DNA of 9,075 bases. Origin: a virus (Duplodnaviria > Heunggongvirae > Uroviricota > Caudoviricetes). The first letter of the stretch is position 1. Each line of letters begins with the position of its first letter. Both the position numbers and the translations under genes were made by a program. Location: the IMG/VR virus record IMGVR_UViG_2698536649_000010; one strand, 5' to 3'. Under the pieces are notes generated by a model. The model had not been told where the DNA came from. It was given only the letters and a program-made list of their open reading frames with translations, and did no database searches. Shown in pieces: positions 2,680-7,490 of this stretch.

Positions 2680-3214
2680 ACAGGTTTGTGAGGCTCTGGA
2701 TACCTGGGTATGCCGACCAGGAATGACACAGGAGCAGGCGACGATATTAATCACGGAAGCATTCTGGGCTCTGAAAGAACGCCCGAACATCGATGTTCAA
2801 CGCGTCACGTTTAATGATGGCGAGGTTGATCAACGGGCGCTGGGCGTTAACCGGGTGAAGATATTCGAACGCTGGAAAGCTATCGACACCAGAGATAAGC
2901 GTGACAAATTCACGGCGCTGATTCCGGCAATTATGGAGGCTATCCGGATCAGCGATTTCAGATTGTATTGTGAAATTACTGACGGAAAAAGCATTACGTA
3001 CATGATCGCCGGGTTAAACAAAGAATATGGCGATGTGGTGGAGTCCGGGCTGCTTTTTGCGGATCCAGTTGTTGTGGAACGTGAGACTGACGAGCTTATA
3101 GAAAAAGCTATTGCTTTCAAGCACGCGTATCGTCAGCAATACCAATATTACTTTGCAGATAAACAAATGTCTGCCAGGGGGTCGTATGAGTATCGATGCA
3201 CTACGATGGGCTAA
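2663..3214 (+). CDS. YdaT-like (CII-position) prophage regulatory protein
   Basis: ATG at 2663 overlaps the dicC stop; 183-aa product resembles recalled Rac YdaT in the central region (ERWKAIDTRDKRDKFTALIPAIMEAI versus WLKGETKTQREKIQKLIPAILAIL). Sits directly after the Cro-like gene. Confidence 0.55.
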   Translation: MKITTEQVCEALDTWVCRPGMTQEQATILITEAFWALKERPNIDVQRVTFNDGEVDQRALGVNRVKIFERWKAIDTRDKRDKFTALIPAIMEAIRISDFRLYCEITDGKSITYMIAGLNKEYGDVVESGLLFADPVVVERETDELIEKAIAFKHAYRQQYQYYFADKQMSARGSYEYRCTTMG

Positions 3215-3767
3215 AAAGGTGAAAACCGGCAGTTCATCCAGTAAGTCAGTATTGACCTGGCTTGCTGATATGTGCGGTGCCGATTTGTGTGCATACCCGT
3301 CTGTATCTGCACTGGCAGAAGTAACGGAACTGAACAAAAAGACTGTGCAGGACAGCTTACGACACCTGATGGAGATTGGGTTAATTGTTGATACCGGTGA
3401 GAGAAAAGGCAGAACAAAGCAAATTGTGGTGTACCGACTTATCGGTGTAGAAGAAAGTGTTGCCGAGCCTGAATACACCCAAAAACGGGAGTCTTTAAAG
3501 GTGGGTACAATTGGTGCTGTTAATAAAAACAGTACCGAAAATGGTTATGTTTCAGCACAAAACAGACCCAAAAACAGAACTCTTAGCTGCATGGAAAATA
3601 ACCAAAGACACCCAAATTTTCCATCAAAGACACCCAAAAACGGATCACGGAACCCAAAGGAACCCAAAGATCTAAACCCCACACATAACGCACGCGAGAG
3701 TGCTCCGACCAGTGAGCAGGAAGTTTTGTCGTTACAGGCAGCCCCCCTGTATTCCTGTATGGCCTGA
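3186..3767 (+). CDS. replication initiator, N-terminal winged-helix part (lambda O-like role); probably truncated by a frameshift
   Basis: ATG at 3186 with GGGGG SD. N-terminal HTH-like region, then a low-complexity linker encoded across iteron-like repeats. Frame ends at TGA 3765..3767 shortly after a C6 homopolymer (3742..3747); the following frame carries the DnaT-like continuation. Confidence 0.6.
   Translation: MSIDALRWAKKVKTGSSSSKSVLTWLADMCGADLCAYPSVSALAEVTELNKKTVQDSLRHLMEIGLIVDTGERKGRTKQIVVYRLIGVEESVAEPEYTQKRESLKVGTIGAVNKNSTENGYVSAQNRPKNRTLSCMENNQRHPNFPSKTPKNGSRNPKEPKDLNPTHNARESAPTSEQEVLSLQAAPLYSCMA
3475..3670 (+). repeat. iteron-like direct repeats (candidate replication origin) inside the initiator gene
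   Basis: Six copies of an ACCCAAA-core motif with core at 3477, 3566, 3609, 3631, 3652, 3662. Spacings of 43, 22, 21 and 10 bp approximate multiples of a helical turn. Position inside the linker-coding part of the initiator gene parallels ori-lambda inside O. Confidence 0.45.
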
Positions 3768-3790: not shown

Positions 3791-4225
3791 ATGAGCGATA
3801 GCTGGTATCCGTCACGGGATTTTCGACGACGGGCTGCGTTGTGGGGGATGGCTTTGCCGGAGACAGAATTTACACCTGCTGAACTTGCCGCCTTCCGGGA
3901 CTACTGGGCAGCGGAGGGGAAAGTGTTTACGCAGATTCAGTGGGAGCAGAAATTCGCCCGTCACGTAAATCACGTCAGGGCGCAGGTTAAACCAGTCAGC
4001 AAAGGGGTAAACCATGCAGCAGCACCAGGTGGCACCGCATCACGGGCAGTTCAGGAAATTCGGGCAGCACGTGAGCAGTGGGAACGTGAAAACGGATTTA
4101 TCAGCGACGGAAACGGCCTGGAAGCTGTGGGAACTCATGGGGGTGGTTTATTCGAACCGCTGGATCCAGAAGAACGGGGCCGCACCTTCGAAGCTCTGGA
4201 TTGCACAGATTGGCGCGATGACTGA
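3791..4225 (+). CDS. DnaT C-terminal-domain-like (primosomal protein I-like) ORF; probably the frameshifted C-terminal half of the initiator
   Basis: Product YPSRDFRRRAALWGMALPETEFTPAELAAFRDYWAAEGKVFTQIQWEQKFAR aligns with recalled E. coli DnaT ([55 protein letters not shown]). The similarity continues upstream of ATG 3791 in the same frame (EPIGKFPM versus VPMGKFAM), where no start codon exists. 3' end in this frame (4225) overlaps the P-like gene by 212 nt, so the true stop is uncertain. Confidence 0.5.
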   Translation: MSDSWYPSRDFRRRAALWGMALPETEFTPAELAAFRDYWAAEGKVFTQIQWEQKFARHVNHVRAQVKPVSKGVNHAAAPGGTASRAVQEIRAAREQWERENGFISDGNGLEAVGTHGGGLFEPLDPEERGRTFEALDCTDWRDD

Positions 4226-4679
4226 GCAGCAAATCCGGCAGGTCTGCCGCCAGTGCATGGACCGCTGCCGGGCGGGTGAAACATGGCCTCCGGACCTGGC
4301 TGAGTTTGTGGCACTGATTTCGAAAAGCGGAGCCAATCCATTCGGTCTGACGGTGGATGCTGTGATGGAGGAGTACCGCCGCTGGCGCAATGAGTCCTGG
4401 CGATACGACGGAAGTGATAAGTACCCGTGGTCTCAGCCTGTGCTGTATCACATTTGCCTCGAGATGCGTTCAAAGGGGATTGAGCGCCAGATGACCGAAG
4501 GGGAATTAAAACGGCTTGCAGAACGGCAACTGACGAAATGGGCAAAGCATGTTAGTAACGGCCTGAGCGTTCCGCCAGTCCGGCGACAACTGGCGGCCCC
4601 CAAACGCCCGTCGGGGCCAACGCCAATTGAGTTGCTGAAACAGGAATATGAACGCCGGAAAGCGGCCGGTTTTGTCTGA
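4014..4679 (+). CDS. lambda P-like replication protein (DnaB helicase loader)
   Basis: ATG at 4014 with AAGGGG SD 7 nt upstream; 221 aa. C-terminal half aligns with recalled lambda P (YDGSDKYPWSQPVLYHICLEMRSKGIERQMTEGELKRLAERQL versus YPDAESYPWKSNAHYWLVTNLYQNMRANALTDAELRRKAADEL). Confidence 0.75.
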   Translation: MQQHQVAPHHGQFRKFGQHVSSGNVKTDLSATETAWKLWELMGVVYSNRWIQKNGAAPSKLWIAQIGAMTEQQIRQVCRQCMDRCRAGETWPPDLAEFVALISKSGANPFGLTVDAVMEEYRRWRNESWRYDGSDKYPWSQPVLYHICLEMRSKGIERQMTEGELKRLAERQLTKWAKHVSNGLSVPPVRRQLAAPKRPSGPTPIELLKQEYERRKAAGFV

Positions 4680-4713
4680 GTTGAGAAGTAATTTTTACCG
4701 GGAGGAAAATTTA

Positions 4714-5448
4714 ATGGAAACCGTTTTTGACGCACTGAAAGCGATGGGAAAAGCCACGTCGGTATAGCTGGCTGCGCGACTTGATATCAGTCGTGAAGAA
4801 GTACTGAACGAGCTGTGGGAACTGAAAAAGGCTGGCTTCGTTGATAAAAGCGTATACACCTGGCGTGTGGCTGATAACAACGTTCAGCAGGAACAGCCAG
4901 CGCCAGAAGAAACCACCACGGCAACAGAAGCGAAAATCTCAGAGTGCGATTTAACCGCGACGATTGAACAACGCGGACCACAAACGGCGGATGAACTGGC
5001 TACGCTGTTCGGTACAACATCCCGCAAAGTTGCTTCAACGCTGGCAATGGCAATCAGCAAAGGTCGTCTGATTCGCGTAAACCAGAACGGTAAAATTCGT
5101 TACTGCATACCAGGTGATAATTTACCAGCAGAGCCGAAAGTTGAATCGGTAGCGGAAACCGATGGTAAAGCCTTTCCTCAGCCAGCCGGTGTTGCGTTAC
5201 CGGTACAGAAAGATGCAACACAGGAAGATATTAAAACAGAAACTGTGGCGGACATTGTGCAGTCGCTGCCATCGTTTACTGCAACGCGAGAAGATGATTT
5301 GATTTTGCCATCGCTGCATATGGCAAATCGCGAACTGCGTAGGGCGAAGAATCATGTCCAGAAGTGGGAGCGAGTCTGCGCCGCGCTGCGGGAGCTGAAC
5401 AAGCACCGGGATATGGTTGCCGGGATTTGTCGGAAGTCCGGGCAATGA
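4714..5448 (+). pseudogene. double winged-helix protein gene interrupted by an in-frame amber codon
   Basis: ATG at 4714 with GGAGG SD 8 nt upstream. Codon 18 is TAG (4765..4767) and the same frame continues open to 5448. The N-terminal repeat ([40 protein letters not shown]) and a second repeat ([38 protein letters not shown]) both look like winged-helix units. First possible restart downstream is GTG 4867. Confidence 0.55.
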
Positions 5449-5483
5449 GCGGATGGTGCAGGCCTGAAATCATGATACTAACA

Positions 5484-6056
5484 ATGAAGGTAAAATGCAT
5501 CGGCAGTCTGATTGGTCGTAGTGAGGCGGCGGTCAGGATGAAAGCCCAGGTTAAGGGAATAAGCCTGATTCTGCGGGGTGATTTTCACCAGTCAACAAAA
5601 TATCCGTAGCGCGATAACGGTCAAAAATTATGGCGCTGACACTTTTGTGCCACTGGAGATGACTGTACCTAAGTTCAGGGGAGAAGAACACGTCCGGTGG
5701 GATGGTCGGGCCAGATTTAAAGGGCAGGTCATGGCTCCAGCCTGTACGCTGGCAATGGAGGCTGCCTGGCGGGAAATTGATATGGGAACCACGCCACTCA
5801 GGGATTTACTGCCGGTCCAGAGAATAAATTCCTGTTACGGTTACACCACTGTGATCTTGCAAGTGCAGGAAAGTAGGTCTACACGGTAACGCGAGTGCGT
5901 GTAACTTTTGATGTCATTCCCGTAGAAACACCGGACAAATTTTCGCTGACAGGTCATGCAGAAGGTATAAATCTGCAGATTATGGACAATTACGGATATC
6001 CGGCAAGAGCCGGAAAAAGCATGCCGCCTCTAATTCTCAGTGGAAGATGGACTTGA
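5484..6056 (+). pseudogene. decayed fimbrial major-subunit-like gene remnant (chaperone-usher type)
   Basis: Three successive frames carry fimbrial-like segments: a signal-like MKVKCIGSLIG (from 5484), then GRARFKGQVMAPACTL...INSC (5578..5889; compare FimA GGTVHFKGEVVNAACAV...LNDC), then GINLQIMDNYG (5895..6056; compare FimA GVQILDRTG). At least two frame changes are needed, and the usual C-terminal strand is missing where the AT-rich block begins. Confidence 0.35.
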
Positions 6057-6307
6057 TTATACTCATTGCATTGTCAGAAATAGTTATCCATTAAAGGCTG
6101 GCTATTCCAAACAGGATGTTGATTACAAAAATGTAATCAACATGTAAGGTTTATACTCTTCAATATGCGTATAATTTTCCTTATTTTGTTGACTTTAAAT
6201 AACAAGCTATGCACGAGGTAAAGTCGGATAAGTTTATCTGGATGTAATATATATTATTTGTAGTGTTTATAACTTTATTTCATGATAACCAATAAAAGGA
6301 GTTTTTT
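6057..6307 (+). promoter_or_regulatory. AT-rich upstream region of the binding-protein moron (promoter not resolved)
   Basis: Strongly AT-rich compared with flanking phage genes. Contains a 10-bp inverted repeat GTTGATTACA-AAAA-TGTAATCAAC (6118..6141), a TATAAT hexamer at 6170..6175, TTGACT at 6189..6194, and a strong SD AAGGAG at 6296..6301 before ATG 6308. Confidence 0.35.
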
Positions 6308-7066
6308 ATGAGGAACATAATGGCAGGTTTTTTAATATTCCTGTCTTCTGCTGCTTATGCTGATATCAATCTGTATGGTCCTGGTGGCCCGCATACAGCC
6401 TTGCTTGATGCAGCCAAACTTTATGCCGAAAAAACAGGTATTATAGTGAACGTTCATTACGGCCCACAGAACAAATGGAATGAAGATGCCAAAAAAAATG
6501 CAGATATCTTGTTTGGCGCATCAGAACAATCTGCTCTGGCTATCATTCGGGACCATAAAGACAGCTTCAGTGAAAAAGATATTCAGCCTCTTTATCTGCG
6601 AAAAAGTATTTTACTGGTAAAGAAAGGTAATCCTAAAAATATCCGGAGTATTGACGACCTGACCAGACCTGGGATTGGCGTAATTGTTAATGATGGTGGT
6701 GGTACCAGTAATACATCAGGCACTGGCGTCTGGGAAGATATTGCCGGACGTAAAGGGAATATAGAAACTGTCGCCGCAATCCGAAAAAATATTATTTTAT
6801 ATGCGCCCAATAGCGGAACTGCACGTAAGGCTCTTGAGAATCAGCCTGGAGCAGATGTCTGGATAACCTGGGCTGACTGGGCAGCCAGTAATCCAGAAAT
6901 TGGTGATGTCGTGGAAATAGCGCCAGACTACGTGATATGGCGTGATATGAACATTACAGTACGTCAGGATGCAAATGATGAAACCCGTCGATTTGCAGAA
7001 TGGCTACAAACCGATGAAGCGGCGCCTGCATTCAAAAAATATGGCTGGACCAGGAAAGGCACTTGA
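6308..7066 (+). CDS. secreted periplasmic substrate-binding protein, ModA-like fold; orphan (no transporter genes adjacent)
   Basis: 252-aa product with N-terminal signal peptide (MRNIMAGFLIFLSSAAYA then DINLYG). Resembles recalled E. coli ModA at several points (ADILFGASEQSA versus ADLFISADQKW; C-terminal RFAEWLQTDEAAPAFKKYGW versus AFYDYLKGPQAAEIFKRYGF). AT-rich codon usage. Confidence 0.8.
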   Translation: MRNIMAGFLIFLSSAAYADINLYGPGGPHTALLDAAKLYAEKTGIIVNVHYGPQNKWNEDAKKNADILFGASEQSALAIIRDHKDSFSEKDIQPLYLRKSILLVKKGNPKNIRSIDDLTRPGIGVIVNDGGGTSNTSGTGVWEDIAGRKGNIETVAAIRKNIILYAPNSGTARKALENQPGADVWITWADWAASNPEIGDVVEIAPDYVIWRDMNITVRQDANDETRRFAEWLQTDEAAPAFKKYGWTRKGT

Positions 7067-7067
7067 C

Positions 7068-7098
7068 ATCCTCGTCCTTCAGGACGTGGATTCTTTTT
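7068..7098 (+). terminator. intrinsic terminator of the binding-protein gene
   Basis: Begins 2 nt after the TGA stop: stem ATCCTCGTCC / GGACGTGGAT (9 of 10 pairs), loop TTCA, followed by TCTTTTTCC. Confidence 0.6.
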
Positions 7099-7220
7099 CC
7101 GGATGCCGCGCCAGCGGCATGTAGGGGCAGCTCACAAAACGGAAAAAATTGTACGCTAAGCCTCGCCAGGTGAACTGAATTCATTCCGATATGGGAATTC
7201 CCATATCGGGCGAAAACGGT

Positions 7221-7249: not shown

Positions 7250-7302
7250 GCTGCGGGTGCTTGAGGCTATCTGCCTCGGGCATGAACACCAACGGCAGAT
7301 AG

Positions 7303-7353
7303 ATAAAAGCCCCACCCGACTATAAATCGAAGTGAGGCCCCTATATGCTCGTC
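7303..7353 (-). ncRNA. candidate Sok-like antisense RNA
   Basis: Minus-strand hairpin (7309..7339, stem with two G-U pairs) followed by a U-run (7308..7303). Possible promoter on the minus strand: -35 TTGACC (+7383..7388), 17-bp spacer, weak -10 CAATCT (+7360..7365). It is antisense to the hok leader around the mok start, where Sok acts in known hok/sok loci. Confidence 0.3.
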
Positions 7354-7401
7354 ACATATAGATTGCCTCTTACGGACCGAAAGGTCAAGGAGAAGCAGGC
7401 T

Positions 7402-7458
7402 ATGAAGCAGCAAAAGGCGATGTTAAAAGGCGGGGGAGAAATCCCTCGCCACCTCTGA
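7402..7458 (+). pseudogene. hok: truncated hok toxin ORF (18 codons; HokD-like N-terminus, transmembrane segment absent)
   Basis: Encodes MKQQKAMLKGGGEIPRHL then stop. The first 8 residues match recalled HokD/RelF (MKQQKAMLIALIVICLTV...); the hydrophobic helix and C-terminal domain are missing in all three frames before the terminator, implying an internal deletion of roughly 100 to 130 bp. Confidence 0.55.
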
Positions 7459-7490
7459 TGTGTCAGGCATCCTCAACGCACCCGCACTTA

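Follow-up and report, generated by a model that had tools for sequence, protein, structure and literature searches.

Why would a phage carry the gene of a lone secreted solute-binding protein, with no transporter at its side, and what could such a protein do for the cell that houses the phage? The question is raised by a 9,075-nucleotide (nt) stretch of viral DNA (Caudoviricetes; IMG/VR record IMGVR_UViG_2698536649_000010), here called the window. An initial annotation, made from the letters alone, had read positions 6057-7098 as an AT-rich moron that codes for an orphan ModA-like periplasmic binding protein. As far as sequence can tell, it is essentially certain that the open reading frame (ORF) at 6308-7066 (plus strand; 252 amino acids plus stop; intact) is paa, also called adfO or z2053, the already described 'porcine attaching-and-effacing associated' gene, and that it codes for a solute-binding-fold protein of the AcfC/PEB3 family. 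We consider it very probable that the locus as a whole is best explained by paa being prophage cargo, by Paa being an exported binding protein of the AcfC/PEB3/Paa family, and by an effect on colonization that is most likely indirect. The mechanism of Paa is far less certain than the identity of the gene.

Direct matches settled which gene this is. The interval 6057-7098 (1,042 nt) gave a 100% nucleotide match to DNA annotated as 'paa: AcfC family adhesin Paa' in EHEC and related genomes of serogroups O157, O26, O103, O111 and O145, and the protein is 100% identical, over its full length, to WP_001449026.1 (cluster P0001, 'AcfC family adhesin Paa'). When 5,426 complete Escherichia coli genomes were searched, the interval was present in 610 of them, at 581 chromosomal and 36 plasmid places, and 551 records were at least 99% identical to it. 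PPompW phage records in GenBank name the gene 'Paa/adherence factor AdfO', and no AcfC-family gene was found outside PPompW-type records in 50,697 phage genomes, a protein search included. According to a review of O-islands, adfO (z2053) is located in O-island (OI) 57, always beside ckf, which codes for a hok-type killing factor (PMC8565820). The sequence, the prophage, the ompW site and the place between the replication genes and hokD (ckf) are identical to those of Paa/AdfO (z2053) of porcine enteropathogenic E. coli (EPEC) and enterohaemorrhagic E. coli (EHEC) O157:H7, and the window differs from the reference PPompW copies only outside paa: 136 bp of hokD are missing, and there are several indels of 1 nt. 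Hence, what had been taken for an uncharacterized orphan is a named virulence-associated gene. Publications and annotations had already covered the gene, where it lies in the prophage, what it is related to and how it is linked to adherence; paa/adfO is in use as a marker of virulence in EHEC, EPEC and porcine enterotoxigenic E. coli (ETEC), and its occurrence in the window adds nothing new.

Paa can be assigned to the AcfC/PEB3/Paa family by profile and by structure prediction. The protein matched the Pfam profile SBP_bac_11 (5.5e-34; 118 bits against a cut-off of 25), and among PDB sequences it matched PEB3 (1.2e-81) and AcfC (3.5e-81) over Paa residues 11-248. An AlphaFold2 model of Paa, built on 25 homologs, had a mean predicted local distance difference test (pLDDT) score of 90.8. 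When this model was compared with known structures by Foldseek, the closest were AcfC of Vibrio cholerae (4jb7; template modeling (TM) score 0.96, root-mean-square deviation 1.3 Å) and PEB3 of Campylobacter jejuni (3fj7 and 2hxw; TM 0.95). The model predicts that Paa is a soluble protein with the two-lobed class-II periplasmic-binding fold, which superposes on AcfC and PEB3. Identity is 52% to PEB3 (PDB 2hxw, 3fj7, 3fjg, 3fir; an E-value of the order of 1e-81) and 52% to AcfC in the structural alignment.

The next structural matches were ModA and the sulfate-binding proteins, with TM scores of 0.65-0.78 and 12-19% identity. ModA (molybdate) and Sbp/CysP (sulfate/thiosulfate) bind anions via backbone and hydroxyl groups, and they have the class-II two-lobed fold in common with Paa; they differ from it in their conserved motifs, and Paa lacks a modBC or cysUWA partner. 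With the curated hidden Markov models (HMMs), Paa remained below the cut-offs both for ModA (TIGR01256, 18.3 bits against 62.5; NF002920, 17.7 against 470) and for the sulfate/thiosulfate-binding proteins (NF008022, 22.6 against 288; TIGR00971, 21.5 against 155.5; NF008106, 19 against 308). Membership in either group was rejected, because scores of 18-23 bits face cut-offs of 62-470 and the likeness is at the level of the fold only. The term ModA-like, as first used, is right for the general fold, but identity to ModA structures is 12-18%, and the comparison of structures, which did yield a binding-protein fold, places AcfC and PEB3 nearest and ModA and the sulfate-binding proteins next.

Conservation was analyzed in an alignment of 25 homologs with 51-87% identity. 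The invariant positions are GPGGPH (24-29), GPQ (52-54), S72/Q74/S75, GNP (107-109), SNTSGTG-WED (134-144), NSG (168-170), W185/T187/W188/D190/W191, R212 and N215; among them, S134-N-T-S-G-T-G140, W142, E143 and D144 align to PEB3, which has the same SNTSGTG ligand loop. In sequence terms, the invariant positions point to a conserved binding cleft. Paa T136 and S137 correspond to PEB3 T138 and S139, a correspondence that could be drawn because the K135E variant among the PDB sequences fixes the numbering. T138 and S139 are reported to be the PEB3 ligand-site residues mutated by Min et al. 2009, a change that is said to abolish ligand binding. For PEB3 the ligands were determined (3-phosphoglycerate, phosphoenolpyruvate, phosphate and citrate), whereas for Paa only a ligand class can be proposed. 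Unlike Paa, which is phage- or plasmid-borne, PEB3 is chromosomal in C. jejuni and is an N-glycoprotein; E. coli does not have the Campylobacter N-glycosylation system.

The protein is predicted to leave the cytoplasm. Its first 18 residues, MRNIMAGFLIFLSSAAYA (6308-6361, plus strand), combine a basic n-region, a hydrophobic core and an A-x-A cleavage site, and a signal peptidase I cut is predicted before D19, so that the mature chain would begin with DINLYG. The crystallized mature PEB3 chains align from Paa residue 19 onward, PEB3 has its signal peptide at the same position, and in the AlphaFold2 model pLDDT is low only across residues 1-20. These sequence features and the PEB3 alignment confirm the signal peptide of the initial annotation. 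The Paa sequence contains no lipobox, and there is no Cys anywhere in the protein. The predicted mature form has 234 amino acids, 25.8 kDa and a pI (isoelectric point) of about 6.0. Paa would thus carry a cleavable Sec signal, and export to the periplasm is predicted.

That no permease or ATPase partner accompanies the gene, as first noted, was confirmed in the window and holds within 12 kb either side of paa in the reference genome, where transporter genes are not adjacent and neither modB/modC nor cysUWA was found. A hidden transporter partner was searched for in nine genomic contexts (the prophage, two IncF plasmids and six other lineages) and was not found: no permease or ATPase gene stands beside the family gene in any of the nine. 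The search for orphan homologs in other prophages returned PPompW-type records only, but solitary homologs exist in the six other lineages, which are Edwardsiella, Enterobacter, Francisella, Campylobacter, Vibrio and Aeromonas. ABC (ATP-binding cassette) operons that lie near some homologs, at a distance of 0.7-1.9 kb, own a binding protein already. The Vibrio copy is inside a TCP/ToxT/TagA island, and the Aeromonas copy inside an AlpA/H-NS-type island. The absence of a cis-encoded permease is therefore a trait of the family in the nine contexts sampled, which are a small sample and no census. In the V. cholerae context (L015) we also observed a second, AcfC-like gene at 5001-5750, 53% identical to Paa, within a TCP/ToxT-type island and beside a TagA/StcE-like M66 mucinase gene; a mucin-related neighborhood recurs in the AcfC/PEB3/Paa family.

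The carrier of paa is an ompW-integrated lambdoid prophage (PPompW; CP-933O; OI-57 of O157:H7), and paa is cargo in the early-right region of this prophage in EHEC and related E. coli. In O157:H7 PV15-279 the order is truncated ompW, integrase, excisionase, exonuclease, dicB, repressor/cro, replication genes including P, a DUF1627 gene, a fimbrial pseudogene, paa, hokD, DUF968 and rusA. When the window was compared with paa-less Rac-like/lambdoid prophages, homology stopped at 5417-5418 (L004 and L005) or at 5616 (L006), and restarted at 7429, in the hok region. A small ORF (5445-5609, plus strand) marks the left border of the insert; it is the leftover 5′ part of a phage gene for a 'DNA-binding protein', which L006 has intact. 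In related prophages, the place after the DUF1627 gene is taken by DUF977 genes, iteA/iteS or other genes. This slot is a cargo hotspot, and its varied content supports a moron-like reading of the paa unit. The slot was observed at 7250-10643 in L005 (E. coli O84:H7 Trh52) and at 7240-9219 in L004, and the cargo of these Rac-like prophages includes iteA/iteS, an anti-phage ATPase/S8 peptidase pair.

The insert is composite, and consists of a defunct fragment from the fimbrial operon of a plasmid and a self-contained paa cassette. The fimbrial-subunit pseudogene (5614-6147, plus strand) has a frameshift and internal stops and is not part of the paa unit. Its DNA is ∼86% identical to plasmid pixH-type genes across 5642-6106 only, with both gene ends missing; the pixH-type (P-pilus family) counterparts are on ETEC and other IncF plasmids, such as pEB2 of E. 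coli B7A. The joining of a pixH fragment to the paa cassette suggests that the prophage captured plasmid DNA. IncF plasmids from pigs and other hosts have the paa cassette at 86-89% identity, from 6104-6114 to 7126, and this common segment spans the AT-rich leader, the Shine-Dalgarno sequence, the ORF and the downstream hairpins. By these limits, the paa unit is a self-contained cassette of ∼1.0 kb (6114-7126) made up of putative promoter region, gene and terminator. The initial annotation had rightly seen a self-contained unit, but had set its limits at 6057-7098, of which 6057-6106 is the tail of the fimbrial pseudogene and lies outside the unit. The idea that paa itself was left behind when a host or plasmid operon broke up was considered and rejected: the pixH match ends at 6106 and the plasmid cassettes start at 6104-6114, so that the fimbrial remnant is separate DNA joined at about 6104-6114. 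The plasmid paa cassettes have no adjoining fimbrial genes, and two 'plasmid' records with the pixH-fragment/paa junction are the same prophage segment. On an IncF plasmid of porcine E. coli BE311 (L003) we observed a diverged paa allele at 6216-6974, with ∼86% nucleotide identity and annotated merely as 'substrate-binding domain-containing protein'; it lies ∼1.9 kb from sta1 (4078-4293), the heat-stable enterotoxin (STa) gene, and is flanked by IS1 copies.

The designation as a moron holds in part. The paa ORF has 43.9% GC (34.9% at third codon positions), and the flanking phage genes have 52-54%. Foreign composition, a variable slot, an own terminator and a virulence-associated function dispensable to the phage are what the unit has in common with phage morons such as lambda bor/lom and Stx-phage cargo. 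Unlike these, it has a promoter that is putative, with only a TATAAT hexamer and no -35 element, it is part of a composite insert (fimbrial fragment plus cassette), and the cassette is common to IncF plasmids.

What Paa does was considered in the light of published work on the family. An EHEC adfO mutant showed lower adherence to HeLa cells and secreted fewer proteins, and Paa has been implicated in colonization of the pig ileum (review PMC8565820, citing Ho 2008 and Batisson 2003). AcfC, a periplasmic protein, binds mucin as well as sulfated glycosaminoglycans; mucin chemotaxis and correct localization in the intestine depend on it, and adhesion to Caco-2 or HT-29MTX cells does not (PMC5976639). 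PEB3 binds 3-phosphoglycerate and related phosphates, according to the literature on this protein, and a review has questioned the adhesin status of Peb proteins. A sensing or other non-transport role, which the initial annotation had raised, is indeed what the literature on the AcfC/PEB3/Paa family discusses. Like paa, acfC is horizontally acquired, on a virulence island, and codes for a colonization factor. In contrast to paa, it belongs to the ToxT-regulated Vibrio pathogenicity island 1 (VPI-1), is downstream of acfB, which codes for a protein like the methyl-accepting chemotaxis proteins (MCP), and has a documented role in mucin chemotaxis; paa has no chemoreceptor neighbor and a different regulatory region.

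We propose that Sec-exported Paa would clamp a small anionic ligand, bearing phosphate, sulfate or carboxylate, between its two lobes. The ligand may be gripped by the invariant Ser/Thr/Asn-rich loops (GPGGPH, S72/Q74/S75, SNTSGTG and NSG) and by R212, and the protein would work without a dedicated permease. Adherence and colonization would most likely be raised indirectly, in that the protein senses or captures an anionic compound of host origin in the periplasm, and not by an adhesin on the outer surface. Some points weigh against this proposal. The name 'adhesin', together with the adherence phenotypes, would fit a direct binding of Paa to host glycans just as well. Expression of paa in the lysogen, presumably from its own promoter, is assumed, and a consensus scan of the region upstream of the gene (6107-6307) detected no sigma-70 consensus promoter.

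Of the other explanations, the one nearest to the annotation 'AcfC family adhesin Paa' is that Paa is a true adhesin, exposed at the surface or in the medium, which would bind sulfated or anionic host glycans (mucin, heparan sulfate) and tether the bacterium before intimin-mediated attachment. The adherence defects of paa/adfO mutants (PMC8565820) are in line with it, as is the affinity of purified AcfC for heparin, chondroitin sulfate and mucin in an enzyme-linked immunosorbent assay (PMC5976639). We nevertheless regard it as possible but unlikely, since Paa has a type-I signal peptide only, without lipobox, Cys, beta-barrel or anchor domain, since AcfC and PEB3 are localized to the periplasm and adhesion to Caco-2 or HT-29MTX cells is independent of AcfC (PMC5976639), and since the review of Peb proteins doubts that they are adhesins. 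Paa might instead be a periplasmic co-receptor: once bound to its ligand, it would dock on a sensor kinase or a chemoreceptor and thereby alter motility or the expression of virulence genes. Parallels are maltose-binding protein, which docks on Tar, and the proposed pairing of AcfC with the MCP-like AcfB. Mucin chemotaxis requires AcfC, the gene of which shares a transcript with acfB (PMC5976639). The altered secretion of several proteins in the adfO mutant suggests a regulatory effect (PMC8565820), and the Enterobacter homolog adjoins a hybrid sensor kinase with a periplasmic SBP_bac_3 domain. Neither the prophage nor the plasmids, however, have a chemoreceptor or kinase gene beside paa, and for Paa itself this explanation would be drawn by analogy; we treat it as tentative, with the chances rather against it.

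It could also be argued that Paa is an orphan substrate-binding protein that feeds a host-encoded ABC permease shared with another binding protein, in the way that Sbp and CysP share CysUWA, the ligand being for example 3-phosphoglycerate, another phosphorylated metabolite or sulfate. The class-II fold, the rank of ModA and the sulfate-binding proteins as nearest structures outside the family, the invariance of the binding-site loops, and the description of PEB3 as a 3-phosphoglycerate transporter component that supports growth all agree with such a role. We judge it to be quite improbable, given that no member of the family has a co-operonic permease or ATPase in the nine contexts, that the same-strand ABC operon in Enterobacter has its own binding protein and is ∼690 nt apart, and that no candidate partner emerged. 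Finally, since paa directly adjoins the degraded pixH-like fragment, and the prophage of the window has other lesions (the hokD deletion and a frameshift in a replication gene), the gene might be a functionless hitch-hiker that was carried along with the dead fimbrial fragment when the prophage captured plasmid DNA. This is extremely unlikely: the ORF is undamaged, 551 records have it at an identity of at least 99%, every family-invariant residue is retained, and published mutants show phenotypes (PMC8565820).

The signals around paa were then located in the window. The non-coding region upstream of the gene (6107-6307, plus strand; 201 nt) has 26.9% GC and is common to the plasmid paa alleles; since it is present there too, it travels with the gene, and presumably it holds the promoter and regulatory sites. 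Because the consensus scan of this region gave nothing, a private promoter remains putative; overall, the scan found fewer sites than in shuffled sequence. A perfect TATAAT hexamer (6170-6175, plus strand) is present in all three paa cassettes and is a candidate -10 element. It lies 48 nt downstream of the core of a palindrome and has no recognizable -35 element. This palindrome, ATGTTGATTACA-AAAA-TGTAATCAACAT (6116-6143, no strand assigned), has two perfect arms of 12 nt, lies at the left edge of the cassette and is a candidate operator; its core ATTACAAAAATGTAAT is kept in both diverged plasmid alleles. It is not known to fit a binding-site consensus of the FNR, CRP, TyrR or LacI type, a comparison for which no motif database was used. 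The palindrome and the TATAAT hexamer are kept among E. coli paa cassettes only and are absent upstream of distant family homologs, which leaves a family-wide operator without support.

For translation, a Shine-Dalgarno sequence AAGGAG (6296-6301, plus strand) is placed 6 nt before the ATG and is kept in the plasmid alleles. Downstream, an intrinsic-terminator-like hairpin, AUCC.CGUCC-UUCA-GGACG.GGAU followed by UCUUUUU (7068-7098, plus strand), begins 2 nt past the stop codon. The stem-loop (7068-7091) has nine pairs, one mismatch and the loop UUCA, with a stability of -13.3 kcal/mol; the advantage over shuffled sequence is no more than moderate (z = -1.8). The hairpin is kept in one plasmid allele, and its left arm is deleted in the other. 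A second GC-rich hairpin, ATGCCGC-GCCA-GCGGCAT (7103-7120, plus strand), is present in all three cassettes, and plasmid homology stops just past it, at about 7126. The AT-rich upstream region, the strong Shine-Dalgarno sequence and the terminator just past the stop, all claimed in the initial annotation, are therefore real features, the terminator being of moderate strength.

Further observations concern the prophage outside the cassette. A 24-bp perfect palindrome, CCGATATGGGAATTCCCATATCGG, lies at 7186-7209, between the paa cassette and the hok/sok locus. The hok/sok leader region (7255-7404, plus strand; Rfam sok RF01794, 103.9 bits) is intact and belongs to the prophage backbone downstream of the cassette. 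In hokD (ckf), at 7402-7460, 136 bp are missing at the junction 7426/7427 relative to reference prophages, which removes most of the toxin frame and leaves MKQQKAMLKGGGEIPRHL followed by a stop codon. A contiguous junction of this type was not present among the best matches in the 5,426 complete E. coli genomes, all of which consisted of two pieces spanning 237 bp. The deletion could be a real inactivation of the toxin, or an artefact of assembly or editing. Indels of 1 nt relative to the reference PPompW copies occur at 3742, 1873, 4690-4713 and 5906, and none is inside 6057-7098. The missing C at 3742 breaks a DnaT-like replication gene into two ORFs (3111-3767 and 3791-4225). These indels represent either prophage decay or sequencing or assembly errors. 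In the PV15-279 copy an IS1203 element of the IS3 family (L001, 8577-9887) is inserted in the replication gene at the point that corresponds to 3942-3944 of the window, with a 3-bp overlap consistent with a target-site duplication; the window is without the insertion sequence (IS).

What may be useful here is the exact anatomy of the unit, that is, the cassette limits, the dead pixH-like fragment and the palindrome with its TATAAT hexamer, and the finding that IncF plasmids have the cassette too, in one case next to the gene of the STa enterotoxin. Pushed further, and with considerable doubt on our part, the data could mean that the ∼1.0-kb paa cassette is exchangeable between IncF virulence plasmids and PPompW, with the 28-bp palindrome as a possible operator, and that the whole family consists of permease-less periplasmic sensors of host-derived anionic metabolites, which would be neither adhesins nor components of transport. 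The family is solitary in every lineage sampled; together with the anatomy of the unit and its presence on plasmids, this brings into focus how colonization can be promoted by a binding protein that lacks a transporter.

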